IMG/VR virus record: IMGVR_UViG_3300012953_000184
Span: 1-26,775 of that record
DNA: 26,775 bases
Source of the DNA: a virus
Lineage: Duplodnaviria; Caudoviricetes
Reading direction: 5' to 3' (one strand)
The first letter of the stretch is position 1. Each line of letters opens with the position of its first letter. Below the pieces are notes generated by a model. The model saw nothing but the letters and a program-made list of their open reading frames with translations, ran no database searches and was not told the DNA's origin. A program made the translations under genes and the position numbers. Positions 1 through 26,775 of this stretch are shown piece after piece.

Positions 1-897
1 AATGGTGCGGTTAGCAATATCGTACTGTCAGACCAGATGCCTGATTTAAAAGTGATTGATTTTCTAACAGGGCTATTTAAGATGTTCAACCTCACAGCTT
101 TTGTGCAAAGTGATGGGAAGATTAAGGTCATGACACTAGATAATTTTTATAGCGCAGGCACTACTCACGATATCAGTGGGTTTGTTGATGTAAACCAAAG
201 CAATGTAGATTTTGCAATACCATACCAAGAGATAGCCTTTAGGTTTAAAAAGCCCAACACATTTCTGGCTATAAACTTTAGTGAGATAAACAACAAAGTA
301 TTTGGAGACTTAGAAAGCACAACAACTGAAAGCACCGATGTGCAAACAACAAACAGGGGCGGCAAATATGTAGTGCAATTGCCATACGGTAAAATGATCT
401 ACGAAAGGCTTAATGACTTAAACAATGGCAACCAAAGTTTGATACAATACGGCTTCTGTACGGACAAAGACCAAAACCCAATAAACATTGACCCTCTTGT
501 TCTAAACATAACAAACGAGACGCTAACGTCAGGTAATTATTTAAGTTTTTACAATGGCGCCAGTACAGGCACAGCAGCAGGGCTTACATCATACAACAGA
601 CCGTCTAATACATACGGCACAAGTCAATCGTTAAACTTTGGAACAGAAATAGACGAGTACACAGCCCTAGCAGAAGATGACAGCCTGTTTGAAAACTTCT
701 ACAAGAATTATATCGTAGATGTATTTAATTCAAAAAGGCGGTTAGTTAAGGTCAAGGCATTTCTACCCTTAAAGATATTATTGAACTATCAACTCAACGA
801 CTTCTTTGTAATCAATAACAAAAAGTTTGTGATAAACAGCATAAGCACAAACCTCACTACAGGCGAGAGCAACATAGAACTCCTAAACGAATTATGA
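1..897 (+). CDS. Phage tail/baseplate structural protein, C-terminal part (5'-truncated by the window)
   Basis: Frame is open from base 1 (NGAVSNIVLSDQMPDLK...); ends ...FVINSISTNLTTGESNIELLNEL, typical of Bacteroidota phage tail proteins; directly precedes the tape measure gene. Confidence 0.65.
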   Translation, partial: NGAVSNIVLSDQMPDLKVIDFLTGLFKMFNLTAFVQSDGKIKVMTLDNFYSAGTTHDISGFVDVNQSNVDFAIPYQEIAFRFKKPNTFLAINFSEINNKVFGDLESTTTESTDVQTTNRGGKYVVQLPYGKMIYERLNDLNNGNQSLIQYGFCTDKDQNPINIDPLVLNITNETLTSGNYLSFYNGASTGTAAGLTSYNRPSNTYGTSQSLNFGTEIDEYTALAEDDSLFENFYKNYIVDVFNSKRRLVKVKAFLPLKILLNYQLNDFFVINNKKFVINSISTNLTTGESNIELLNEL

Positions 898-1040
898 AAA
901 CAATACTAGACCTACTTGAATTTGCTAACGGTGAGACTGAAAACATACAGATTGCCAAAGGCAAGTATCATTTAAAAACATCACTCAAAGAAGCCTTTGA
1001 GCAGTACAAAAAAGAAAGAGAATGGCACAGACAGAAATAA
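894..1040 (+). CDS. Small hypothetical protein (48 aa, MKTILDLLEFANGETENIQIAKGKY...), not in the ORF track
   Basis: ATGA overlap with the upstream stop; fills the gap and overlaps the tape measure start. Confidence 0.65.
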   Translation: MKTILDLLEFANGETENIQIAKGKYHLKTSLKEAFEQYKKEREWHRQK

Positions 1041-2758
1041 TCGAAATAAAGGCAAAAACCGATAAGGCTGTTGCAGAACTAGAAGAGTTACGAGAAAACG
1101 TTGAACAACTAAACAGTGAGGTAGCAGTTGGTAATAGAAAAATATCAAAAGGGCTTAAAAACGTAGAGAAATCATCAAACACTGTTGCTAAAGGTGTACG
1201 TGGCATTGGAACAGCTTTAAAAGCGGCAGGTATAGGACTAGCTATTGCCGCTTTTGCAAAATTAAATGATGCCTTTACTCAAAACCAAAAAGTTGCAGAT
1301 GCCTTTAATAAAGTCAGTCAAACTGCATCTATTGTATTTAATCAGTTTCTTGGAGTTATAATTGAAGTATATGAAAGTGTAGCCAAATCAAAAGATAATT
1401 TTGATGCACTTGGAAAAGTGATTAATGGATTACTAACAATTGCGTTCACGCCTTTAAAACTAACTTTCTTTGGAATTAAATTAGGCATTCAACAGGCACA
1501 ATTAGCATGGGAAAAATCTTTTTTTGGTGGTAAGGATTCTGACAAAATAGCCGAGTTGACTTTAGGGATTTCAGAAACAAAAGAGGCAATTTACCAGTCA
1601 GGAGTTGGAGCTGTTGAGGCAGGGAAATCAATAGTTACTAACTTTTTAGAAGCTGTTACTGAAGTTGGTGATATAGCCAAAAAAACTGTTGATGGTGTTT
1701 CTAAAATTAGCATTAAAGCAGCAAGCGAAGCAGCAAAAACAAATGTAGAACTAGAGAAAACAGCAAGACTTGCAGAGGTAGCAAATCAGGGTCTTATTGA
1801 AAAATACGATAGGCAAGCAGAACAATTACGTCAAACAAGAGATGATGAAAGCAAAAGTTTTGAAGATCGTATAAAAGCCAATCAAGAGTTAGGTGCGCTT
1901 TTAGATGAGCAAGAAAAAACAATGATGGCTAATGCCAATGCTAGAGTACAGCTTGCTGCTGCTGAACTTGCTATAAACAAAGAAAATGTAGACCTACAAA
2001 TAGCTTACCAAGAAGCACTTAATGAACAAGCAGCCATTGAAGCGCAAGTCACAGGGTTTAGAAGTGAGCAACAAATAAACACTAATTCACTATTAAAAGA
2101 GCAGAAAGACCTACAAAATGAATTGACACTTATAGGTAAATCAGAACGTGAGATAGAACGTTTAGAACTGCAACAAGACTATGAGGCTAAAAAAGCACTT
2201 ATAGAACGTGAGATAACAGATGAAGCAGAGAAAAACGATAGGTTAATAGCTTTACAAGAGGACTACAATGATAAACTACAAGTATTAGAAAATACAAAGT
2301 TTAAAATGGCATCTAAAACTTTAGGCAATATATCTAAAGCTGTTGGCGAAAACACAAAGGCTGGTAAGGCTGCCGCTGCCGCTGCCGCACTAATTAATAC
2401 TTATCAAGGTATTACAGCAGAACTTGCTACCAAAACTGTTACTCCGTTTGATTTTGTTATAAAACTTGCCAACATAGCTACAACTGCCGCAATAGGTTTT
2501 AAATCCGTTAAGAACATATTAAAAACTACACCTAAATCAACAGGAGCAGGAGGAGCAGCAGGAGCAGAAGCAAGCGCACCATCAATAACCGCTGCACAAG
2601 CACCTGCGTTTAACATAGTAGGCACTTCAAGCACAAACCAACTGGCAGAGACAATCGCAGGGCAACAACAGCAACCAGTCAAAGCTTTTGTGGTAGCAAA
2701 TGACGTAACCACAGCACAATCATTAGAAAGAAATACAATACAAGGAGCAACAATATAA
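1022..2758 (+). CDS. Tail tape measure-like protein
   Basis: 578 aa; Ala/Glu/Lys-rich helical and coiled-coil segments, hydrophobic AAGIGLAIAA stretches, C-terminal VKAFVVANDVTTAQ motif. Confidence 0.75.
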   Translation: MAQTEIIEIKAKTDKAVAELEELRENVEQLNSEVAVGNRKISKGLKNVEKSSNTVAKGVRGIGTALKAAGIGLAIAAFAKLNDAFTQNQKVADAFNKVSQTASIVFNQFLGVIIEVYESVAKSKDNFDALGKVINGLLTIAFTPLKLTFFGIKLGIQQAQLAWEKSFFGGKDSDKIAELTLGISETKEAIYQSGVGAVEAGKSIVTNFLEAVTEVGDIAKKTVDGVSKISIKAASEAAKTNVELEKTARLAEVANQGLIEKYDRQAEQLRQTRDDESKSFEDRIKANQELGALLDEQEKTMMANANARVQLAAAELAINKENVDLQIAYQEALNEQAAIEAQVTGFRSEQQINTNSLLKEQKDLQNELTLIGKSEREIERLELQQDYEAKKALIEREITDEAEKNDRLIALQEDYNDKLQVLENTKFKMASKTLGNISKAVGENTKAGKAAAAAAALINTYQGITAELATKTVTPFDFVIKLANIATTAAIGFKSVKNILKTTPKSTGAGGAAGAEASAPSITAAQAPAFNIVGTSSTNQLAETIAGQQQQPVKAFVVANDVTTAQSLERNTIQGATI

Positions 2759-2768
2759 AAGGTAAATC

Positions 2769-3614
2769 ATGGAAATATACGAACTGATAATAGACGAAGA
2801 TCAAGAGGTGGCAGTAGAAGCCATATCAATTGTAGAACGACCTGCTATTGAGGAAGAGTTTATAGCACTTAAAGATCAGCAGGTCTTACTAGCAGAGGTA
2901 AACAAAGAGAAGAGGCTTCTTGTAGGTGCGCTGCTTGTTCCTAACAAGCCTATTTACCGCAAGCGTGGCAAAGAGGAGTATTATATATACTTCTCAAAAG
3001 ATACAGTGCGTAAGGCTATGGAGCTTTACTTAATGGGTGGCAAACAAAACAACACCACCCTTGAGCATCAACACGCGCTAAACGGAATTAGCCTTGTTGA
3101 GAGTTGGCAAGTAGAACACGAAACATACGATAAAACAAAGATGTATGGGCTTAGTGTTCCTTTATATGCTTGGGCGGGTATTTTAAAAGTAAACAATGAT
3201 GAGGTTTGGAATGACTATGTCAAAACAGGAAAGGTAAAAGGCTTTAGCATAGAGGGGTACTTCATTGACAAGATGCAAAGACCTAAAGAGCCTGTAAACG
3301 ACTTTGAGGAAGAAGCTGAAGAACTGCTGTCAAAAGTAAAACAAATTGTTAAAAATGAATTAAGTGTGGTGGTAAATGACACTATGGCTATTATAGACGA
3401 TAGACTGGCATACGCAACAAAAGAACTTGCAATCAAAGCAGCACAGGACATTGGCTGTGATAGTTACCACGAGCATGAGTTTGAGGGTAAGACTTGGTAT
3501 ATGCCCTGTGAGCAGCATCAATTAAAAAAGCCATGCCAAGAAGGATATGAGCAATATGGCATGAAGCGCAAAAACGGAAAACTTGTACCTAACTGCATAC
3601 CTGTAAAAAAATGA
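2769..3614 (+). CDS. XkdF-like putative prohead (maturation) serine protease with C-terminal Cys/His extension
   Basis: AISIVERPAIEE, GALLVPNKPIYR, TLEH, VESW and VKTGKVKGFSIEG motifs of XkdF/Peptidase_S78_2-like proteins; upstream of scaffold and capsid. Confidence 0.8.
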   Translation: MEIYELIIDEDQEVAVEAISIVERPAIEEEFIALKDQQVLLAEVNKEKRLLVGALLVPNKPIYRKRGKEEYYIYFSKDTVRKAMELYLMGGKQNNTTLEHQHALNGISLVESWQVEHETYDKTKMYGLSVPLYAWAGILKVNNDEVWNDYVKTGKVKGFSIEGYFIDKMQRPKEPVNDFEEEAEELLSKVKQIVKNELSVVVNDTMAIIDDRLAYATKELAIKAAQDIGCDSYHEHEFEGKTWYMPCEQHQLKKPCQEGYEQYGMKRKNGKLVPNCIPVKK

Positions 3615-3793
3615 GAAAGTCAAAATTCAAAACACCTAGTAGAATATCGCCTAAAGGCGGAAAAAGAGGCTGCCTATGTCCAGACGGCACTTACCATGCC
3701 AAGTGCTGCGATGGCTCACTACAAGCACAAGGAATAGGTGTTACAAAAGGCGGTAGCGTGACAATTATCAACAACGTACAGATTACAGACTAA
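3611..3793 (+). CDS. Small Cys-rich hypothetical protein
   Basis: ATGA overlap; RGCLCPDGTYHAKCCDGSLQAQGIG. Confidence 0.7.
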   Translation: MRKSKFKTPSRISPKGGKRGCLCPDGTYHAKCCDGSLQAQGIGVTKGGSVTIINNVQITD

Positions 3794-3800
3794 AAAAAAC

Positions 3801-3835
3801 TTTACCACTTCGCTTTTTTGCTGTTTATAGTAGTA
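3801..3835 (+). promoter_or_regulatory. Putative late promoter, copy 1: TTTACCACTT-N11-TGTTTATAGTAGTA
   Basis: Both boxes and the 11-nt spacing recur exactly at 24570-24604; lies just upstream of the scaffold-capsid-tail tube operon. Confidence 0.7.
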
Positions 3836-3846
3836 GACGCAGATAT

Positions 3847-4440
3847 ATGAAAGCAACTGAAATGGTAGATAAGATCAAAGACTTGCTTGGCATAGAACTT
3901 ACAAGCCAAGAAGCAGAGGCAGTTAAACTGGCTCAGTCCACACTTGAAAACGGAACAGTCATAGAATACGAAAGTATGGAAGCAGGGTCTCCTGTTTTTA
4001 TTGTTTCAGAGGACGAAAAAATCGCCCTTCCCAGAGGCGAGTACACTTTAGAAGACGGAAAAATTTTAGTGGTTGTTGATGAAGGCGAAATAGCTGAAAT
4101 CAAAGAAGCTGCCGAGGAAGACGTTGAAGCAACTGAAGAAGTTGAGGCTGCAAAGGAAGAAGAAGAAGTGACAGCCGAGTACATCGAAAGAGATGAGTTT
4201 GATGCGCTTAAAAAACAAATTGAGGATTTGAAGCGTGAGTTTGAAAAGCACTACGACGAAAAAGAAAAAGAGGAAATGGCAAAAAAAGAAAAAGAAGAAT
4301 TGTCAAAAGTTGAAGTAGATGCCGAGCCTGTATATCACAGCCCAGACGCCACGCAAGAAACAAAAATGAACATCTCTACAGCATCAAACTACAGACAAGA
4401 AACAACCTATGACAGGGTATTAAAAACATTATACAACTAA
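3847..4440 (+). CDS. Capsid scaffolding protein (putative)
   Basis: Very acidic, coiled-coil; LPRGEYTLEDGKILVV motif; lies between protease and major capsid protein. Confidence 0.7.
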   Translation: MKATEMVDKIKDLLGIELTSQEAEAVKLAQSTLENGTVIEYESMEAGSPVFIVSEDEKIALPRGEYTLEDGKILVVVDEGEIAEIKEAAEEDVEATEEVEAAKEEEEVTAEYIERDEFDALKKQIEDLKREFEKHYDEKEKEEMAKKEKEELSKVEVDAEPVYHSPDATQETKMNISTASNYRQETTYDRVLKTLYN

Positions 4441-14243: not shown

Positions 14244-15431
14244 ATGTATTTTTATTTAAAAAACAAAAACACTAACTCAAAGACCTTAATACTTTTAAGA
14301 TATTACGTTGCCAAAGATAGAAAATTGTTTCAGTTATCTACTAAACTTTCTATTAAACCTTCTGACTGGTCTTTTGACAATAGAATGCCTACTCCCAAGC
14401 GTGGACTTGCAAGTGTAGAGAGCAGGCAGCTAACTAATAAGCTAAACCGTATTAATGAGAAGCTACAGGCGGTACTGCTGCATTATGGTAAAGACGTTAG
14501 AGTAGAAAACCTAAAGGAAGCATTTGCACCAAAAAAAAATAAAGAAAACGTTGAGCCTTTGTTTTTAGAATTTATAGAGGAAAAAAAAATACAAGGCACG
14601 CTCAACAAGTCAAGCATACAAAAGTACAATGTGGTGTTTGATAAATACAAAAGCTTTTGTGCAAAACAACACACCAAGTACAAGATAATGCAGCTCAACG
14701 ATGATTTCTACATTGCTTTTTTAAGTTATATGCGGCACGATCACGGCTTAAACGACAACACGCTTTCTCGTTATTTTGTCTGTTTTAAAACATTTGTACT
14801 GTGGTGTCAGCGCAAAGGCATAGAGATTAATACAGACTATAAAAAAGTAACTGTAAAAGAGTATGAAGCAGATGGTATTGCGCTTACTGTTGAAGATGTT
14901 AAGACGCTAGAACAGGCAGAACTCACTGGCGCAGAGGAAAAGGCTAGGGATTTGTTTTTAATTGGTGTGTATTCGGGTCAAAGGTTTTCAGACTACAGCG
15001 TGTTTGACAAGGCAGACGTGCAAGGTAAGTTTATAATAAAACGAGCAGAAAAGACAGAGAAGCACAGTTATATACCGCTTCACAATAAGCTAAAAGATTT
15101 GCTTGACAAGTACGACTGGAGGCTGCCAAAGATAAGCTCGCAGAAGTTTAATGTAAGGATCCAAGCGGTATGTAAGAAATTAGGCTTTGATGAGCAGATA
15201 AAGAAAACTACCTATAAAGGCAAGGATAAGACTGTAGAGATTATACCAAAGTGGCGCATGGTAGCATCGCACACAGCCAGAAGAACCTATACCACACTGG
15301 CGTGTGAGGCAGGAATAGCAGACCATTTCATCATGGCTGTTACTGGCATAAAAGACCCCAAGACACTACAGAAATACAAAAAGCTAAATAAAGAAATGCT
15401 TTTTAAGTCTTCTGCTTCTTTTTGGGTTTAG
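14244..15431 (+). CDS. int: Tyrosine recombinase / phage integrase
   Basis: N-terminal arm-binding-like region, RDLFLIGVYSGQRFSD, AEKT, SHTARRT, C-terminal QKY; adjacent to attP. Confidence 0.93.
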   Translation: MYFYLKNKNTNSKTLILLRYYVAKDRKLFQLSTKLSIKPSDWSFDNRMPTPKRGLASVESRQLTNKLNRINEKLQAVLLHYGKDVRVENLKEAFAPKKNKENVEPLFLEFIEEKKIQGTLNKSSIQKYNVVFDKYKSFCAKQHTKYKIMQLNDDFYIAFLSYMRHDHGLNDNTLSRYFVCFKTFVLWCQRKGIEINTDYKKVTVKEYEADGIALTVEDVKTLEQAELTGAEEKARDLFLIGVYSGQRFSDYSVFDKADVQGKFIIKRAEKTEKHSYIPLHNKLKDLLDKYDWRLPKISSQKFNVRIQAVCKKLGFDEQIKKTTYKGKDKTVEIIPKWRMVASHTARRTYTTLACEAGIADHFIMAVTGIKDPKTLQKYKKLNKEMLFKSSASFWV

Positions 15432-17542: not shown

Positions 17543-17932
17543 ATGAAAATAAATAGAGAAGATTTAGAAGGAATCCTTATAGACAATTTCACAGATAAAG
17601 ATGGACACCTTGATTTATCAGATTTAGACTTTAGAAAAGTTAAAGGCAAAGTAATTCTCACAAGAATGAAAGCAAAGGTAATTAATAACTCATTCCAAGA
17701 AGCAGAGTGGATTGATAACACACACCAAAAAGCAGAGTGGATTGATAACACATACCAAAAAGCAAAGAAGATTTGGAACTATGGTCAAAAAGCAGAGTGG
17801 ATTGAAAACAATAATCAAAAAGCTAAGGTTATTCATAACTATTACCAAGAAGCAGAGTGGATTTTTAACTTATACCAAGAAGCAGAGACGATTAGTAACG
17901 CAAACCAAATAGCAAAGAAGATTATAAAATAA
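17543..17932 (+). CDS. 10-aa repeat protein, paralogue 1
   Basis: TDKDGHLDLSDLDF N-domain plus about 8-9 QxAxxIxNxx repeats. Confidence 0.8.
   Translation: MKINREDLEGILIDNFTDKDGHLDLSDLDFRKVKGKVILTRMKAKVINNSFQEAEWIDNTHQKAEWIDNTYQKAKKIWNYGQKAEWIENNNQKAKVIHNYYQEAEWIFNLYQEAETISNANQIAKKIIK
17666..17929 (+). repeat. 30-bp coding tandem repeat (CAA nnn GCA nnn nnn ATT nnn AAC nnn nnn)
   Basis: Strict 30-bp period visible in the sequence. Confidence 0.9.
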
Positions 17933-17954
17933 CTAACCCTTAAACCCAAATAAC

Positions 17955-20381: not shown

Positions 20382-20702
20382 ATGAAAAAAATAAACAAGA
20401 TAAGAGACTACTTAATTAAGCATAGAACAGATGAATATGGAAACCTTGATTTATCTGACTTAGATTTTAAAGACTTTAACGGTGATATACTGTTGAATGG
20501 AATGGTAGCTAAAAAAAAGATTTCTAATCTCGGGCAAAATGCAAGTATAATTTCTAACACATACCAAGAAGCAGAGACGATTTGGAACTCATGGCAAGAC
20601 GCAGATATAATTTGCAACCATAATCAAACTGCGGATAGTATTGATAACAATAATCAAGAATTAGAACATCGGCATGATGACTGGCGTCAGATGATGCAGT
20701 AA
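20382..20702 (+). CDS. 10-aa repeat protein, paralogue 2
   Basis: TDEYGNLDLSDLDF N-domain plus about 5 repeats (20505-20660) and a unique short tail. Confidence 0.8.
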   Translation: MKKINKIRDYLIKHRTDEYGNLDLSDLDFKDFNGDILLNGMVAKKKISNLGQNASIISNTYQEAETIWNSWQDADIICNHNQTADSIDNNNQELEHRHDDWRQMMQ

Positions 20703-20723: not shown

Positions 20724-21260
20724 ATGAAAAAAATAAACGAAATAAGAGACTACTTAATTAAGCACAGGACAGACGAAGATGGAGACCTAGATTTATCAGA
20801 TTTAGACTTTAGAGAGTTTGATGGTGATATAGTGTTAGATAAAATGAAATCCAAAAAAACGATTTCTAATTCATTCCAAGACGCAGATATAATTTGGAAC
20901 AATAATCAAAAAGCAAATAAGATTTGGAACGCATGGCAAGAAGCAAAGGAGATTAGGAACACATGGCAAGAAGCAGAGAAGATTAGGAACGCAAATCAAA
21001 AAGCAAATAAGATTTCTAACGCATGGCAAGAAGCAAAGGAGATTAGGAACACAAAGAGCAGATTAAAAGCATTTCTAAACCGACTATTGACACGCTTAGC
21101 AACAATCTTTTTTTTACTAACAATTCGCGCTTTCGTAGTCATTTGCATTGTAATAGGCTTACCAATATGGTTTGTTACAGGGAAAGCATATTTGACTGAT
21201 TGGAGTATTAGGTTAATGGACAAACTCCTAGATACATATTTCAAGGCTCAAAATAACTAA
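20724..21260 (+). CDS. 10-aa repeat protein, paralogue 3, fused to a C-terminal membrane segment
   Basis: Same N-domain plus about 7 repeats (20847-21053), then LATIFFLLTIRAFVVICIVIGLPIWFV. Confidence 0.8.
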   Translation: MKKINEIRDYLIKHRTDEDGDLDLSDLDFREFDGDIVLDKMKSKKTISNSFQDADIIWNNNQKANKIWNAWQEAKEIRNTWQEAEKIRNANQKANKISNAWQEAKEIRNTKSRLKAFLNRLLTRLATIFFLLTIRAFVVICIVIGLPIWFVTGKAYLTDWSIRLMDKLLDTYFKAQNN

Positions 21261-21277
21261 CCCCAAATAATAATAAC

Positions 21278-21577
21278 ATGAAAGGAATAAACGAAATAAG
21301 AGACTACTTAGTTAAGCATAGAACAGACGAAGATGGAGACCTAGATTTATCAGATTTAGACTTTAGAGAGTTTGATGGTGATATAGTGTTAGATAAAATG
21401 AAATCCAAACAGAGTATTATTAACTCACGCCAACAAGCAAAGAAGATTTGGAACAATGGTCAAGAAGCAGATAAGATTTCTAACTCATTCCAAGAAGCAA
21501 AGGAGATTAGGAACACATACCAAAAAGCAAAGAAGATTTGGAACTATGGTCAAAAAGCAGAGGAGATTGTAAAATAA
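21278..21577 (+). CDS. 10-aa repeat protein, paralogue 4
   Basis: 5' region nearly identical to paralogue 3; about 6 repeats (21401-21574). Confidence 0.8.
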   Translation: MKGINEIRDYLVKHRTDEDGDLDLSDLDFREFDGDIVLDKMKSKQSIINSRQQAKKIWNNGQEADKISNSFQEAKEIRNTYQKAKKIWNYGQKAEEIVK

Positions 21578-21928
21578 ATGATTAAGAGAGTCTACCAGAA
21601 GCGCAACAAGTATAAAGCTGTTAAGCAAATGTTTAATGGTAGGCTATACCACAGCAAAAAGGAGGCAGCCTTCGCCCAAGAGTTGCACCTACGTAAGCTT
21701 GCAGGGGAAATTACTGATATCATTCCACAGTACCCCCTGCGACTTTACGTTAATGAAAAAAAAATATGCAACTACTTCATAGACTTCAAAGTAGTATATC
21801 CTGATAACAGCATAGAGCTAATTGAAGTCAAAGGATTTGAAACAGATATATGGAGACTAAAATGGAAATTAACAGAAGCACTATTAGATGAAATAGAACC
21901 TAACGCAAAACTCGTACTTGTAAAATGA
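21578..21928 (+). CDS. DUF1064-like PD-(D/E)xK endonuclease
   Basis: RNKYKA...YHSKKEA...YFIDF...LIEVKGF...WRLKWK. Confidence 0.8.
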   Translation: MIKRVYQKRNKYKAVKQMFNGRLYHSKKEAAFAQELHLRKLAGEITDIIPQYPLRLYVNEKKICNYFIDFKVVYPDNSIELIEVKGFETDIWRLKWKLTEALLDEIEPNAKLVLVK

Positions 21929-22338
21929 ATGAACAACAAATAAAACTTTTTCAAAGTAAAAAGACAGATAATTGGCAAACCCCTAATTGCTTATATAACG
22001 AACTAAATGAAGAGTTTAATTTTGACTTTGATCCTTGTCCCTTAAATTCTACTTTCAATGGGCTAGATTGTAATTGGGGCAGACGTAATTTTATCAATCC
22101 TCCTTATAGTAACGTCAAGGGATTTTTACAAAAAGCCTATGAAGAGTTACAAAATGGCAACGCTGAAGTTTGCGTTTTTTTAACTTTCGCTAATACCGAC
22201 ACAAAATGGTTTCACGACTATTGTTATAATAAAGCAGAAATAAGGTTTATAAAAGGACGCTTAAAATTTTTAGATGATACAGGTAAAGTAAAAAACAGTG
22301 CTATGAGACCAAGTATAATTTTAATATTCAAAAATTAA
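21925..22338 (+). CDS. Phage DNA N6-adenine methyltransferase
   Basis: DNWQTP, FDFDPCP, FINPPYS, TDTKWFH, IRFIKGRLKF. Confidence 0.88.
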   Translation: MNEQQIKLFQSKKTDNWQTPNCLYNELNEEFNFDFDPCPLNSTFNGLDCNWGRRNFINPPYSNVKGFLQKAYEELQNGNAEVCVFLTFANTDTKWFHDYCYNKAEIRFIKGRLKFLDDTGKVKNSAMRPSIILIFKN

Positions 22339-22349
22339 AAACTAATTAA

Positions 22350-22871
22350 ATGAATATACTCGAAAACCTTAACCAAAACCATAAAAGCTTTGTCTTGTAC
22401 GTAAAGAAAAACGCAAGAACAGAACAACAAAAAAAATACCCAGAGGATGTAGTCCAAGAAGCATACTGCCGCATTATAGAAATACAATCGCAAGGGCATG
22501 AACTGAAATTTGAAAGCTACTCAATGCTTGAAAGGTATTTCTTTAAAACAATTAAAAACATCATGATTAACCAGACACAAAAAAAAACAATACAAGAGCT
22601 GCCAATTAAAGGCGAAATCACTTTTCAAGACGTAAAGGATATTGAAGTTATAGAGCACTCAGAGCTTGTAAAAAAGATAGATCAGGTTGTAGAAACTTTT
22701 TACTGGTATGACAAAATGATGTTTAACCTCTATCGTTATAAAATTCCTTCTATTAGAAAAATATCTAGTGAGACCAAAATAAGCAGACCAAGTGTTACAG
22801 GAACCATCAAAAGCTGTAAGTATAAAATACAAAAGGAACTGGCAACAGAATATTATAAAATAGTGAATTAG
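22350..22871 (+). CDS. ECF sigma factor-like protein (candidate late transcription activator)
   Basis: EDVVQEAY and YFFKTIKN (region 2-like); WYDKMMFNLY...SIRKISSETKISRPSV (region 4 HTH). Confidence 0.75.
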   Translation: MNILENLNQNHKSFVLYVKKNARTEQQKKYPEDVVQEAYCRIIEIQSQGHELKFESYSMLERYFFKTIKNIMINQTQKKTIQELPIKGEITFQDVKDIEVIEHSELVKKIDQVVETFYWYDKMMFNLYRYKIPSIRKISSETKISRPSVTGTIKSCKYKIQKELATEYYKIVN

Positions 22872-22877
22872 TAAAAC

Positions 22878-22923
22878 AGTATTAACCCCAAAAAACGTGA
22901 ACATGAGCAAGACAGAAAAAATG
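22878..22923 (+). repeat. Cassette boundary repeat A
   Basis: 22880-22923 is 41/44 identical to 23251-23294 (TATTAACCCCAAAAAAC..GAACATGA.CAAGACAGAAAAAATG). Confidence 0.9.
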
Positions 22924-23235
22924 AAGAATATACAAATGAAAGAAAATGGCAGGATCGTTTATTGCGATGATAACGGCAAGCCATTGTTTTTATACAATGT
23001 TGAGGTACGTTTTTCTTTGTGGTGGAGTAGATTAATTAAAACTGCTAAAGCTAAAATCTGGTGGTATAAAGGAAGTGTTAAAAACTTTGCTTGGTTTCAA
23101 TTAAGGGCTTGGAACGCATTACGAGGCAAAGAAATGATAATGGATAGCAGGGAGGTTATAACCAAAGGTGGCTACATATTCAAACAACTTGAAATAAGTA
23201 AATCTCCTGTAAGTAAAACGGAGTGTATTGAGTAA
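22903..23235 (+). CDS. Hypothetical protein (cassette 1), Trp-rich
   Basis: ORF bounded by repeats A and B; start 22903, 22921 or 22936. Confidence 0.65.
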   Translation: MSKTEKMKNIQMKENGRIVYCDDNGKPLFLYNVEVRFSLWWSRLIKTAKAKIWWYKGSVKNFAWFQLRAWNALRGKEMIMDSREVITKGGYIFKQLEISKSPVSKTECIE

Positions 23236-23294
23236 TGCACCCTAACAAAATATTAACCCCAAAAAACAAGAACATGAACAAGACAGAAAAAATG
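23232..23294 (+). repeat. Cassette boundary repeat B
   Basis: GTAATGCACCCTAAC-AAAATATTAACCCCAAAAAACAAGAACATG... Confidence 0.9.
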
Positions 23295-23633
23295 GAATTA
23301 AAACACAACATTAGTAAATGGAAAGACGAGAATGGCAATGATTTTATCGCCTTAAGCAAAAGTGTTATACCCAAGCGAAAAGGTCGTTTATTAGTAAATA
23401 GAGAATTGATATTACAAGCTGATGTAGATACACTAAAAGTAATTTTCTCAAACTTTTTTCCTTTAGATGTCAATAGACACCATATTGTAAGCTATTGGGA
23501 TAGCATTGAATATTATGGAATAAGCGAACACTTTGAAGAAGTAGAAGAGTTTTGTGCAGCTCCTACTTATGAAATGTGGCTCAAACGTGATAAAAACGGT
23601 AAAGTAAAGTTTGATAAAATGGTAAAGCTATAA
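23274..23633 (+). CDS. Hypothetical protein (cassette 2)
   Basis: ORF bounded by repeats B and C; IEYYGISEHFEEVEE...PTYE; start 23274 or 23292 rather than 23235. Confidence 0.7.
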   Translation: MNKTEKMELKHNISKWKDENGNDFIALSKSVIPKRKGRLLVNRELILQADVDTLKVIFSNFFPLDVNRHHIVSYWDSIEYYGISEHFEEVEEFCAAPTYEMWLKRDKNGKVKFDKMVKL

Positions 23634-23634
23634 G

Positions 23635-23677
23635 TATTACACCCAACAAAGTATCACCCCCAATAAATGAGAACATG
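23635..23677 (+). repeat. Cassette boundary repeat C
   Basis: TATTACACCCAAC-AAAGTATCACCCCCAA (23635-23663) is 27/29 identical to 24531-24559; continues to GAACATG. Confidence 0.9.
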
Positions 23678-23685
23678 AAGATATT

Positions 23686-23994
23686 ATGGCAAAGTACAGA
23701 AAGAAACCAGTAGTAATTGAAGCGATACAACTTAAAGAAACAAATATTAGTGAAGTGCTAAGTTTTATGGGGCAAAAAGTAAGGTTGCAACCTTTTCAGG
23801 AACAAATGAGATTAGAGCAGTATAAAGATAGTGTTGTTGAAAACGGTATGAATATACATACGCTAGAAGATGGAAGTGACGCAAGGGCAAAGCACGTAGC
23901 GAGTATAGGTGATTGGATTATAAAAGGAATAAAGGGTGAATTTTACCCTTGCAAACCCGATATATTTACCGCTACATACGAAGAAGTAAAGTAG
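23686..23994 (+). CDS. Conserved phage protein, PGDYG-like family (cassette 3)
   Basis: KYRKKPVVIEAIQ...IHTLE...ASIGDWIIKGIKGEFYPCKPDIF..TYE. Confidence 0.8.
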   Translation: MAKYRKKPVVIEAIQLKETNISEVLSFMGQKVRLQPFQEQMRLEQYKDSVVENGMNIHTLEDGSDARAKHVASIGDWIIKGIKGEFYPCKPDIFTATYEEVK

Positions 23995-24037
23995 TATTAT
24001 GCACATCAAAGTATTAACCCCAAAAAACAAGAATATG
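23995..24037 (+). repeat. Cassette boundary repeat D
   Basis: TATTATGCACATC-AAAGTATTAACCCCAAAAAACAAGAATATG; 24007-24037 is 29/31 identical to 23246-23276. Confidence 0.88.
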
Positions 24038-24274
24038 GCTTATAGAATATATGAAATAATAAAACCAGAACGTGACGACTACGACTTGAAAACCACTGAG
24101 TCAATAACATTGAAAGAGGTTGATTGTTATGGTTTGAATTGGTCTTACGTTAGCGAAGTATCTGCTAAAATAGATATTGAACAAAACAAAAAAAACTTAA
24201 AACACAAAGACCTAGTTATATTAGAGGTGATTAATATTACACCTAACGCATTGTATAAGGCAAGTAGCATTTAA
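24035..24274 (+). CDS. Hypothetical protein (cassette 4); 3' end reads into the attC-like site
   Basis: MAYRIYEII...; ATG at the end of repeat D is more likely than 23999. Confidence 0.65.
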   Translation: MAYRIYEIIKPERDDYDLKTTESITLKEVDCYGLNWSYVSEVSAKIDIEQNKKNLKHKDLVILEVINITPNALYKASSI

Positions 24275-24365
24275 AGACCAAAAGAAAAAGTAAATTGATT
24301 TAATAACAGCAAATAGTACAAAAATAAGCCTAACAGCTATTTGCTATATACATTGTTAGGTGTAG
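24235..24365. repeat. attC-like imperfect palindrome (site E)
   Basis: ACCTAAC (RYYYAAC, 24241-47) ... GTTAGGT (GTTRRRY, 24355-61), 121 bp; inner arms TGTATAAGGCAAGTAGC (24252-68) and GCTATTTGCTATATACA (24336-52) are 14/17 complementary; AT-rich centre. Confidence 0.75.
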
Positions 24366-24373
24366 TTAAAATT

Positions 24374-24523
24374 ATGTTTGGAATAGGAAATTATTATGGA
24401 GGATTAAAAATAAAAGAAGAAGATGGTAAATACTTTTGGGGGATAGAAAATTATGATGGAACTGATTTTAAAGAAATACCTAAATACCTTTTTGATTCAT
24501 TGGTTGAATTTAGGGATGAGTAA
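24374..24523 (+). CDS. Small hypothetical protein (49 aa, cassette 5)
   Basis: MFGIGNYYGGLKIKEEDGKYFWGIENYDG...; starts 12 nt after GTTAGGT and stops just before repeat F. Confidence 0.7.
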   Translation: MFGIGNYYGGLKIKEEDGKYFWGIENYDGTDFKEIPKYLFDSLVEFRDE

Positions 24524-24530
24524 TAATTTT

Positions 24531-24559
24531 TATTACATCTAACAAAGTATCACCCCCAA
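24531..24559 (+). repeat. Cassette boundary repeat F
   Basis: TATTACATCTAAC-AAAGTATCACCCCCAA. Confidence 0.9.
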
Positions 24560-24572
24560 CAAAGGGGGGTTT
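24552..24572 (+). terminator. Short GC hairpin closing the early/cassette region (possible weak terminator)
   Basis: ACCCCC-AACAAAG-GGGGGT followed by TT; the T-tract is short. Confidence 0.35.
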
Positions 24573-24604
24573 ACCACTTGTAAATTTTCTTGTTTATAGT
24601 AGTA
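24570..24604 (+). promoter_or_regulatory. Putative late promoter, copy 2: TTTACCACTT-N11-TGTTTATAGTAGTA
   Basis: Boxes and spacing identical to 3801-3835; upstream of the terminase operon. Confidence 0.7.
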
Positions 24605-24981
24605 TGAAACAGAAAGGTTTAGGAGATACGGTAGACTGGATTACTACACACACAGGAATTAAACAAGCAGTCAAATATTTCTTTGGAGACAACTGTGGCT
24701 GCCAAGAGCGTAAAGAATGGCTAAACAAAATGCTGCCATACATGCGTGAAGAACTAACACAAAGCGAGTACTTGCTGCTGCACGATTTCTTCAAAGAAGA
24801 TCACAGTACTGTTACAGCCAAACAACAAAGCCAACTACTTAAAATATACAACAGGGTGTTTGGTAAGCGTAGAGAAATGAGCAGTTGCTCTCCATGCGTT
24901 AAAACACTTGTTGATGAGCTAAAAGAATTATACAATGAATACAGTAAAGCTATTGAGCAAAGTAATAAACGGAAGGCTTGA
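24604..24981 (+). CDS. Conserved Cys-containing phage protein
   Basis: KGLGDTV...TGIK...NCGCQERKEWLN...SSCSPCV. Confidence 0.75.
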   Translation: MKQKGLGDTVDWITTHTGIKQAVKYFFGDNCGCQERKEWLNKMLPYMREELTQSEYLLLHDFFKEDHSTVTAKQQSQLLKIYNRVFGKRREMSSCSPCVKTLVDELKELYNEYSKAIEQSNKRKA

Positions 24982-25357
24982 AGATAATACAGGTATTGTA
25001 AAAGCACTAAAACAATATGAAGGAAAAGACATTCAAATTACAATTAAGCTAAAGCAAAAAACACGCAGTAGCTATCAAAACGCTTACTACTGGGCAGTCA
25101 TTATTCCCATGACCGTAAAAGCCTTATACAACGAATGGGGAGAAACATGGACACCTGAAAAGGCACATGAACTATACAAGTATAAATTTATGCAAGAGTT
25201 TAGACAAGTAAAAGATAAAATAATTCAAGTACCAAAATCAACAACAGAAAACAAAACAACAGAGCAAGAGGTGTTTCATGACAATTGCAGGAACTTCCTA
25301 AAAGAGTACTTCAACATTGATGTGCCTCTACCAAACGAATATATAAGAATTGATTAA
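24935..25357 (+). CDS. NinB/recombination-like hypothetical protein
   Basis: KTRSSYQNAYYWAV...HELYK...KSTT...IDVPLP resembles NinB-like proteins. Confidence 0.5.
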   Translation: MNTVKLLSKVINGRLEDNTGIVKALKQYEGKDIQITIKLKQKTRSSYQNAYYWAVIIPMTVKALYNEWGETWTPEKAHELYKYKFMQEFRQVKDKIIQVPKSTTENKTTEQEVFHDNCRNFLKEYFNIDVPLPNEYIRID

Positions 25358-25373
25358 TCAATCTTTTTCAATT

Positions 25374-25673
25374 ATGGACAAACGAAAATATAATGGAGGT
25401 AAAAGAATAGGAGCAGGCAGAAAGCCAAAAGACCAAGAGAATTCATTGATAGAAGCCCTAGACAGAATAGTAGATGGCGATAAGGCTATTGAAGTTTTAA
25501 AAGAACTAATAAGCGAAGGAGACATTAGAGCATTACAACTCTACCTAAACTATCGTTATGGCAAACCAAAAGAAAGTGTAGATGTTACACAATTTGTTGA
25601 ACAACCCCTATTTTTAGATGTTCCTGAAGACTACAGCGGTACAGAAGATACAGAAGCTCAACAAGAGGATTAG
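25374..25673 (+). CDS. terS: Terminase small subunit (putative)
   Basis: MDKRKYNGGKRIGAGRKPK...YRYGKPKESVD...EQPLF; directly upstream of and overlapping TerL. Confidence 0.75.
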   Translation: MDKRKYNGGKRIGAGRKPKDQENSLIEALDRIVDGDKAIEVLKELISEGDIRALQLYLNYRYGKPKESVDVTQFVEQPLFLDVPEDYSGTEDTEAQQED

Positions 25674-26772
25674 AATTGTACAGGGCGGCACGTCTGCATC
25701 TAAGACCTTTGGCATCATTGCGCTGCTTATTGACTACTCCATTAAGCACCCTAAAACAGAAACGTCTGTTGTGGCTGAGTCTATTCCCCATTTGCGTAGG
25801 GGGGCTTTAAGAGACTTTAAAAAGATTATGCAAATGACTGGGCGTTGGCACAGCGAACAGTTTAACAAAACGCTTCTTACGCACACCTTTACCAATGGCT
25901 CAACAATGGAGTTCTTTTCAGCAGACAGCGATGCAAAGCTGCGAGGTGCCAGAAGACATGTGTGCTACCTTAACGAGTGTAACAACATAAGCCACGAGGC
26001 ATACTTCCAATTGGCTGTAAGAACATCCAAACACATATACCTAGACTTTAACCCATCTGCCGAGTTTTGGGCGCATACAGAACTAAAAGATGATCCTGAC
26101 GCTGACTGGCTAATACTGACCTACAAAGACAATCAAGCAGCACCTAAAGCAGCAGTCAAGGAAATACTAAAAGCCAAAGAGAAAGCAGACAAGGGAAACA
26201 CCTTTTGGCAGAACTGGTATCGTGTCTATGGGCTTGGTCTTGTAGGTACTTTGCAAGGTGCTGTGTTTACCAACTGGAAAGAGGGTGCGTTCAAAGAAGT
26301 ATCAAAACCTGTGTATGGTCAAGACTTTGGTTTTAGCAATGACCCCACCACACTTATAAAAACAAGTATTGACAGAGACAAGAAGCTAATATATCTGCAA
26401 GAGTGCTTCTACAAGAAAGGACTTACAACAAGCCAGATAGCAACGCTTAACCAAAAGCACGCAGGCAATGATTTGATTGTAGCAGATAGTGCAGAGCCAC
26501 GCCTTATACAAGAGCTGTCGCAGTATTGCAACATAGTACCAACAATCAAAGGACAGGGCAGCATAACCTATGGCATTAGTCTTTTGCAGGACTATGAGCT
26601 TATTGTAGACCCTCAGAGCGTTAATCTAATCAAAGAGTTAAAGAATTATGTGTGGCTAGAGAAACGCTCGCAAACGCCTTGTGATGCGTTCAATCATTTG
26701 TTAGACGCCCTGCGCTATAGCGTATCGTATCAACTGGCTAACCCACACAAAGGTCAATATTATGTTTATTAG
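25618..26772 (+). CDS. terL: Terminase large subunit (PBSX-like)
   Basis: Walker A-like QGGTSASKT, LRGARR, YLNECN, LDFNP, YGQDFGFSNDP, ADSAEP, NHLLDALRY. Confidence 0.95.
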   Translation: MFLKTTAVQKIQKLNKRIRIVQGGTSASKTFGIIALLIDYSIKHPKTETSVVAESIPHLRRGALRDFKKIMQMTGRWHSEQFNKTLLTHTFTNGSTMEFFSADSDAKLRGARRHVCYLNECNNISHEAYFQLAVRTSKHIYLDFNPSAEFWAHTELKDDPDADWLILTYKDNQAAPKAAVKEILKAKEKADKGNTFWQNWYRVYGLGLVGTLQGAVFTNWKEGAFKEVSKPVYGQDFGFSNDPTTLIKTSIDRDKKLIYLQECFYKKGLTTSQIATLNQKHAGNDLIVADSAEPRLIQELSQYCNIVPTIKGQGSITYGISLLQDYELIVDPQSVNLIKELKNYVWLEKRSQTPCDAFNHLLDALRYSVSYQLANPHKGQYYVY

Positions 26773-26775
26773 ATA

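Follow-up and report, generated by a model that had tools for sequence, protein, structure and literature searches.

An attC-like hairpin in a temperate phage: a probable orphan of an integron-like cassette family of the Bacteroidota

Background

What kind of site is a long hairpin that lies among the small genes of a temperate phage and has the cores of an integron attC site, and with what does it move? The question is raised by the window analysed here, by which we mean the whole of one 26,775-base contig that encodes a terminase large subunit, a portal, virion proteins, an arm-domain integrase and a repressor-like gene. An earlier note, made from the letters of this DNA alone, had read the hairpin as a complete attC site, probably inverted relative to the genes; it overlooked the phage setting of the site and its movement together with the gene downstream. 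We consider it probable (roughly 0.7) that the site is an orphan of a Bacteroidota integron-like hairpin family and that it heads, and moves with, a 49-aa gene. Its recombination is likely to take place on folded single-stranded DNA, at the left AAC, and to depend on a Xer-sized tyrosine recombinase supplied by the host or by another phage. Sequence comparison shows the family membership, the inversion relative to the phage genes, a unit of the form AA/C-hairpin-GTT-gene-AA/C (the stroke marking the proposed crossover), the presence of a recombinase beside complete arrays and its absence here; that the window site recombines is what we infer. A flavobacterial host is probable, since DNA relatives of the hairpin occur in cultured phages of Tenacibaculum, Cellulophaga and Polaribacter.

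Geometry and folding of the site

The hairpin and the gene that follows it comprise the following features:

24238-24247, plus strand: left outer arm, closed by the invariant AAC at 24245-24247; proposed side of the crossover, AA/C
24248-24251, plus strand: long unpaired spacer, 4 nt, from folding and the arm scan
24252-24268, plus strand: left stem arm, source of the G in both conserved G·T mismatches
24269-24335, plus strand: 67-nt AT-rich loop (22% GC); the loop is similar in the phage hairpins L005, L004, L009 and L011
24336-24352, plus strand: right stem arm, with the top right-arm score of the window (27.8)
24353-24364, plus strand: 2-nt short spacer, invariant GTT (24355-24357) and the cassette's own 5' flank
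24374-24523, plus strand: cassette-borne 49-aa ORF, with no Pfam, PHROG or NCBIfam match
24534-24543, plus strand: the cassette's own 3' end, where the unit stops at AA/C; 9/10 complementary to 24355-24364

The elements described in the earlier note are all present. The cores, ACCTAAC at 24241-24247 and GTTAGGT at 24355-24361, bound a span of 121 bp and agree with the RYYYAAC/GTTRRRY pattern and the 57-141-bp size of attC sites. Complementarity extends outward over the full outer arms (10/10 pairs between 24238-24247 and 24355-24364), and the inner 17-nt arms pair at 14 of 17 positions. The spacers are unequal, with 4 nt on the left and 2 nt on the right, the longer one lying on the crossover side as inferred from the ends of related arrays, and the 67-nt centre is AT-rich (22% GC against 37% in the whole window). 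The bases as far as the AA of the left outer arm constitute the end of the upstream unit.

An arm scan of the window yielded this hairpin as its sole match, and no site with an outer arm of at least 10 and an inner arm of at least 6 was obtained from 100 dinucleotide shuffles, with a laxer arm threshold giving 0.47 matches per shuffled window. The folding energy is only modestly unusual: the plus strand folds at -13.7 kcal/mol (z -1.83; 12 of 200 shuffles equally good) and the minus strand at -14.1 (z -2.80; 2 of 200). Between the strands there is little difference (-12.6 vs -11.6 with the stem forced, -13.2 vs -13.8 for the MFE), and any energy-based strand preference in the window site is weak or absent. 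Extrahelical bases, which the earlier note proposed to locate by folding, are absent; the stem is ungapped, and its three mismatches on the plus strand are one A·A and two G·T, both of the latter being conserved features of the family. A possible role of the right arm as a Bacteroidota -7 promoter box was dropped, the consensus of such a box having no match on inspection.

A hairpin family of the Bacteroidota

The family was defined from the comparison loci L010, L021-L139 and L157-L236 (L143, the window's own contig, was left out) by an AAC, a stem of 16 bp that carries G·T at its positions 10 and 15, and a GTT, all of which are found in the window site. Pattern scanning of viral contigs gave six matches, of which four were genuine, and then four more loci; the remaining two (L001 and L003) are not family sites and were kept out of the counts. 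Hairpins of the family occur in arrays of the phages JQ, phi18:3, phi18:1 and P12002L, and at no fewer than 120 genome-contig loci, nearly all from Bacteroidota among the 80 titles listed.

When anchored on the GTT, the family stem consists of 16 ungapped pairs with no bulged base. The G·T at positions 10 and 15 is present in 28/39 and 30/39 phage sites of at least 70 nt, respectively, and in 84% of chromosomal sites at either position, and the AAC is invariant in all 40 sites of the chromosomal set. Both-sided changes were seen at 10 of the 16 stem pairs across these 40 sites, although such covariation counts are partly circular because the sites were picked by pairing. The fairer test is a search with one arm only, which recovered the partner arm and the GTT in 91 of 117 cases. 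A covariance model (R1), built from 40 of 51 candidate chromosomal sites with a length of 120-124 nt, scored the window site at 52.1 bits (E 1.6e-8) on the plus strand and 20.5 bits on the minus strand. As the model contains chromosomal sites alone, this bears out the kinship with flavobacterial chromosomal sites that the earlier note had put forward.

R1 found no site in L007, a close relative of the phage with flanks 76-89% identical, or in L008, and a 21-kb stretch of Vibrio prophage with a classical integron array in it gave no match. At default filters it also missed the short sites of P12002L and L144, though the arm scanner did find P12002L_attC1. The latter is one of a group of short hairpin versions of 44-57 nt (L012, L014, L015, L016) with a recurring TTTTAAT loop.

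Orientation relative to genes

We designate as B the strand on which the longer spacer lies on the left, the counterpart of the attCaadA7 bottom strand shown in the supplement of PMC9892861. In 30/30 pairs of adjacent sites from the 16 phage-type loci (two of these, L009 and L011, are MAG contigs that count as phage by their gene content) the longest intervening ORF lies on B, and in recombinase-bearing viral loci the longest ORF lies on B in 91 of 94 units, beginning inside the hairpin in 40 of 91. In chromosomal loci the genes have the ordinary cassette orientation, the longest ORF being on the non-B strand in 162 of the 166 pairs with an ORF of at least 40 aa, drawn from 180 pairs. Together with the movement of the site with its downstream gene, these counts uphold the inversion relative to the ORFs that the earlier note had suspected. 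A single exception to the uniform array of L005 is a gene reversed at 956-1405.

The better-pairing strand is B in 47/48 phage-type and 287/293 chromosomal sites, and B is likewise favoured by MFE in 41/46 and 242/282 sites. The better-pairing strand thus tracks the spacer and not gene direction, and the fact that B pairs better whichever way the genes run points to a DNA rather than an mRNA structure. An RNA structure between small phage genes, such as a translational coupling element, a leader or a terminator, would be in keeping with the G·U pairs typical of RNA, with the placement of the right arm 10-40 nt ahead of a start codon, and with the better-pairing strand being the sense strand in phages. 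Nevertheless, this strand is antisense to the genes in chromosomes, and neither the invariant AAC/GTT nor the complementarity of a unit's own ends, described next, calls for an RNA role. An Rfam scan of 21000-26775 gave two chance-level matches elsewhere and none on the hairpin. We therefore regard an RNA structure as improbable, though the hairpin may have a secondary translational effect.

The hairpin and the 49-aa gene as a unit

A unit's own ends pair at 6 or more of 7 positions in 74/94 cases in recombinase-bearing viral loci, 137/180 in chromosomal loci and 12/30 in the phage-type set, as against 2/94, 4/180 and 0/30 for the two flanks of one site in the same three sets. Circular intermediates would leave this pattern. 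In the contigs of other sequencing runs that were examined, the window cassette appeared neither excised nor as a circle.

Homologues of the 49-aa gene, 76-82% identical, recur in three other contexts (L016/L148/L149; L144; L145-L147), which share one common upstream hairpin and end at the identical AA/C, the DNA beyond being unrelated. These junctions, like the array ends discussed below, agree with the placement of the crossover on the longer-spacer side in the earlier note. In L145-L147 the left AAC is absent from the hairpin, and just ahead of the 49-aa homologue lies a 41-nt tandem duplication that takes in the start of this gene. The window copy carries another hairpin subtype than the homologous cassettes, with its own ends compensated, suggesting that hairpin and gene part company at times. 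The gene is found in Bacteroidota-type cassettes and, free of cassette ends, in Vibrio and Aeromonas phages; no such ends were seen around the other homologues examined (L150-L153 and the proteobacterial phages L154-L156). A search for further relatives with the 173-aa upstream gene found none.

Contigs from other runs (X numbers; X3 and X6 look like one data set, and X1 may be the source of the window contig) were compared as well; no RNA data set is among those listed as containing the sequence. X2 contains 24235-24550 with 3 differences behind another gene; its match starts 10 letters ahead of the AAC, and hence X2 alone does not fix the crossover. Contigs X3/X6, X12, X13 and X2 have other cassette-type ends before a short module that follows the unit in the window (see below), and the switch falls within a few letters of the AAC.

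Recombinases and array ends

At eight chromosomal loci a tyrosine recombinase of 289-399 aa is encoded directly upstream of the array, and in seven of them the first unit opens at a hairpin-less GTT 27-82 nt past its stop codon. Scanning viral contigs for this enzyme gave 581 confirmed relatives, the best 80 of which were used: 45 have sites upstream of a recombinase of about 267 aa (164 of 165 on the strand of the enzyme), a site lies downstream of the enzyme in three, and 35, many with little upstream DNA, have no site. In 21 of 41 distinct viral loci the last unit ends 35-55 nt ahead of the recombinase start codon, at an AAC that has no hairpin and leads into a TA-rich consensus. The two array ends thus agree on a crossover at the side of the long spacer, corresponding to 24245-24247 in the window.

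The fixed polarity of these arrays also bears on the proposal, named in the earlier note as a potential refutation, of a MITE- or REP-like repeat that inserts between genes by itself. Its appeal lies in the inverted termini and the many dispersed relatives. The repeat is nevertheless a single copy in the window and moves with a gene, its associated enzyme is a tyrosine recombinase, and no transposase appears among the Pfam, PHROG or NCBIfam matches, making this the least probable of the explanations considered.

All recombinases tested fall below the integron-integrase cut-off of TIGR02249. Aligned with VchIntIA, they have 24 residues opposite 67 at I2, the insertion of about 43 residues being absent, and the corresponding motif distance is 59-64 residues as against 106-107 in three IntI proteins. 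An unrooted tree places them outside XerC/XerD (a 100/99 branch) and outside the three IntI, though without an outgroup it cannot show the family to be sister or ancestral to IntI. A one-clade test rejected their grouping, but three unlabelled recombinases of the same type (L244-L246) fall inside it, which makes that test uninformative. The hosts retain separate XerC and XerD.

A relative of the recombinase, annotated as 'integrase', is encoded by the cultured phages Ingeline, Freya, Leef and Danklef. R1 matches lie upstream of it in Leef_1 (four), which thus has both the recombinase and hairpin sites, and Freya_10 (two); in Ingeline_1 no convincing match was found. In L249 and other Freya isolates both length and recombinase position (83 to 4180) vary, which may reflect array variation or assembly ends.

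The window contig encodes no recombinase of the family and contains no attI-like motif, the junction at 24543 being unlike the consensus of attI-like sites; the contig may miss a few kb of the genome, a region where L007 has no such gene. The window site is accordingly an orphan. One other recombinase gene is present:

14244-15431, plus strand: the phage's own lysogeny integrase, with an arm-binding domain, not a cassette recombinase

Relationship to integrons and other Xer-type systems

The family resembles integrons in its AAC/GTT cores, the hairpin with unequal spacers, the better pairing of one strand, own-end complementarity, crossover on the long-spacer side, and a hairpin-less primary site adjoining the recombinase gene. 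It differs in having two conserved G·T in an ungapped 16-bp stem in place of extrahelical bases and a recombinase without I2, and its phage genes oppose the site and often start in the loop. Furthermore, attC lies downstream of its gene, whereas the window site travels with the downstream one. By all comparative tests the window site appears to behave as an integron cassette site, with two tests of membership coming out negative.

The literal reading of the earlier note, in which a classical integron integrase would act on a canonical attC, draws support from the cores, size and unequal spacers. PMC5027507, in which attC features are defined, also reports that some sites can do without extrahelical bases, and a negative membership test based on these bases is weakened accordingly. 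Additionally, PMC9892861 (Qi et al. 2023) describes CALINs in phages, including Polaribacter phage P12002L, whose attC2 recombined with IntI1. That site is, however, oppositely oriented and on inspection not a family hairpin, and P12002L_attC1, a short family member, was negative with IntI1 in the same report; the 'bottom strand' of attC1 is the sense strand of the flanking methyltransferase genes. Taken with the absence of extrahelical bases, the neighbouring recombinases without I2 and the lack of an R1 match in the Vibrio array, this makes a canonical attC unlikely, and the label 'complete attC' does not stand in its strict sense. The appropriate one is an attC-like site of an I2-less Bacteroidota cassette system. 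In PMC9892861, ordinary attC sites are assumed, 'divergent directions' are read as mosaicism and no dedicated recombinase is named. A CALIN requires two or more attC sites without an integrase, and the window, with one intact site and remnants, falls below this threshold.

Several other systems share individual features. XerC and XerD are similar to the array recombinases in size and catalytic motifs but lie on a separate branch of the tree, and in CTXphi a folded single strand without extrahelical bases is recombined (PMC4792948). Lone cassettes inserted in trans at non-classical sites are known from attG secondary sites and delta-attI cassettes (10.1101/2022.09.11.507474; PMC12901181), and in the latter a fragment of the target site stands in place of the hairpin, resembling the module-headed genes described below; these were described for IntI1, whereas the window module has no match to the attI-like consensus of the family. 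In Riemerella, also a member of the Bacteroidota, a gene with a 140-bp 3' hairpin was taken up independently of homology (PMC13148043). Integration there involves the gene together with the hairpin behind it, in line with the orientation seen in chromosomes; no enzyme is named for this uptake, and the hairpin is at most a candidate member of the family.

The accessory block

The unit closes a variable block of small genes, whose remaining features are as follows:

22864-24595, no strand assigned: variable accessory block of five small genes, missing in L007 and replaced by a DNA methylase gene in L008
22903-23235, plus strand: 110-aa ORF, module-headed
23274-23633, plus strand: 119-aa ORF, headed by the module; the cassette-like end behind it scores within the range of shuffles
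23686-23994, plus strand: 102-aa ORF, phrog_419 (unknown function), module-headed
24035-24274, plus strand: 79-aa ORF reading through the left arm, module-headed, with a cassette-type end
24544-24557, plus strand: hairpin-less module after AAC, the terminal copy; each of the four upstream genes has another copy ahead of it

The module consists of an AAC, a C-run, an A-rich stretch and an ATG. Pfam, PHROG and NCBIfam assign no function to the 49-aa gene or to the genes at 22903, 23274 and 24035. Several genes of the block are closed by cassette-like ends, two upstream ends scoring within the range of shuffles, and the 110-aa ORF contains at 22980-23010 a remnant right arm with GTT that scores 17.0 against 12.7 for the best of 10 shuffles. 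A left-arm profile did not discriminate from shuffles. The module recurs in arrays of related contigs, with three copies in one 827-nt record of X12. Within the window, copies with C-run, A-rich stretch and ATG lie at 17934, 20361, 21258, 22883, 23254, 23655 and 24015 on the plus strand and 16426 on the minus strand; they precede accessory genes missing from L007, and at 17934, 20361 and 21258 an AAC is also found ahead. A viral pattern scan for the module gave three matches, all inside coding sequence and taken as chance.

These repeats bring in the main rival of our reading, namely passive acquisition by homology alone. The site would then be an inert passenger that descends from the family but moves by homologous recombination between short repeats, such as modules or near-identical cassette ends, and is no longer site-specific; it would share the origin that we propose and differ in present activity. 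Consistent with this, the contig lacks the recombinase, the other four genes of the block have lost their hairpins, and direct repeats bound the unit (24235-24247 and 24531-24543, 12/13). Moreover, in X11 one module is joined directly to another (22898->23671) over 8 shared letters, and a Dam-type methyltransferase gene at 21925-22338, absent from L007, is skipped in three runs at a joint (21922->22348) that also shares 8 letters. On the other hand, the window hairpin has kept every conserved feature, both G·T included, the unit is almost unchanged in X2, and in other runs cassette-type ends switch close to the AAC. We therefore treat purely passive movement as possible but rather doubtful.

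A possible scenario and its implications

According to the preferred reading, an orphan site still open to recombination, the plus strand would be the recombining ('bottom') strand, and the two G·T mismatches might take the role of extrahelical bases. New phage cassettes would land at the promoter-distal end of the operon, so that their genes are read from the phage promoter against the polarity of the site, with the hairpin loop probably often supplying the start codon in phage units. In this phage the recombinase would come from the host or another phage, and cassettes might land with this borrowed enzyme at the AAC of the module, lose their hairpins by short-homology deletion and then be shuffled by homologous recombination between modules.

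A broader proposal, which we offer tentatively, is that these observations reflect a second integron-like system in Bacteroidota and their phages, without extrahelical bases or I2, as a living form of the Xer-like intermediate from which integrons have been proposed to arise. Phage arrays would run backwards and turn phage genes into cassettes, and an enzyme-less lineage would dock cassettes in trans at the module, with the intact hairpin as its latest capture. I2 and extrahelical bases are held to be essential and co-evolved for cassette recombination, which PMC4792948 presents as a chicken-and-egg paradox along with a speculative Xer-like, phage-linked ancestor. If a widespread cassette system without either is real, the question of origin would become testable, with cultured phages, Leef_1 among them, as a source of complete copies. 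According to PMC8138268, conservation of the insertion is incomplete within its integron-like subgroup, and such enzymes may therefore sit there already, classified without their sites. The system, if true, would also explain the near-absence of complete integrons by IntegronFinder in Bacteroidetes, where few are reported (10.1101/2022.02.28.482270), and account for hypervariable small-gene regions in flavobacterial phages. It may bear on cassette genesis as well, the 49-aa gene being an ordinary phage gene in some genomes and cassette cargo in others. The weight of the window site in all this is moderate, as it is an orphan example. A literature search yielded partial sightings and no account of the whole system; most subscription papers and bioRxiv supplements were outside its coverage, so that absence from print is not proven.

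Other features of the phage

Elsewhere in the window, four paralogous genes (17543-17932, 20382-20702, 20724-21260 and 21278-21577) share a common N-terminus; three of them contain tandem repeats of 30 nt (10 aa), and the one scanned has no family match. A 35-nt motif is common to 3801-3835, 24570-24604 and 8304-8352 of L007, where it precedes structural or packaging genes, and possibly represents a late promoter; its copy at 24570-24604 directly follows the variable block.
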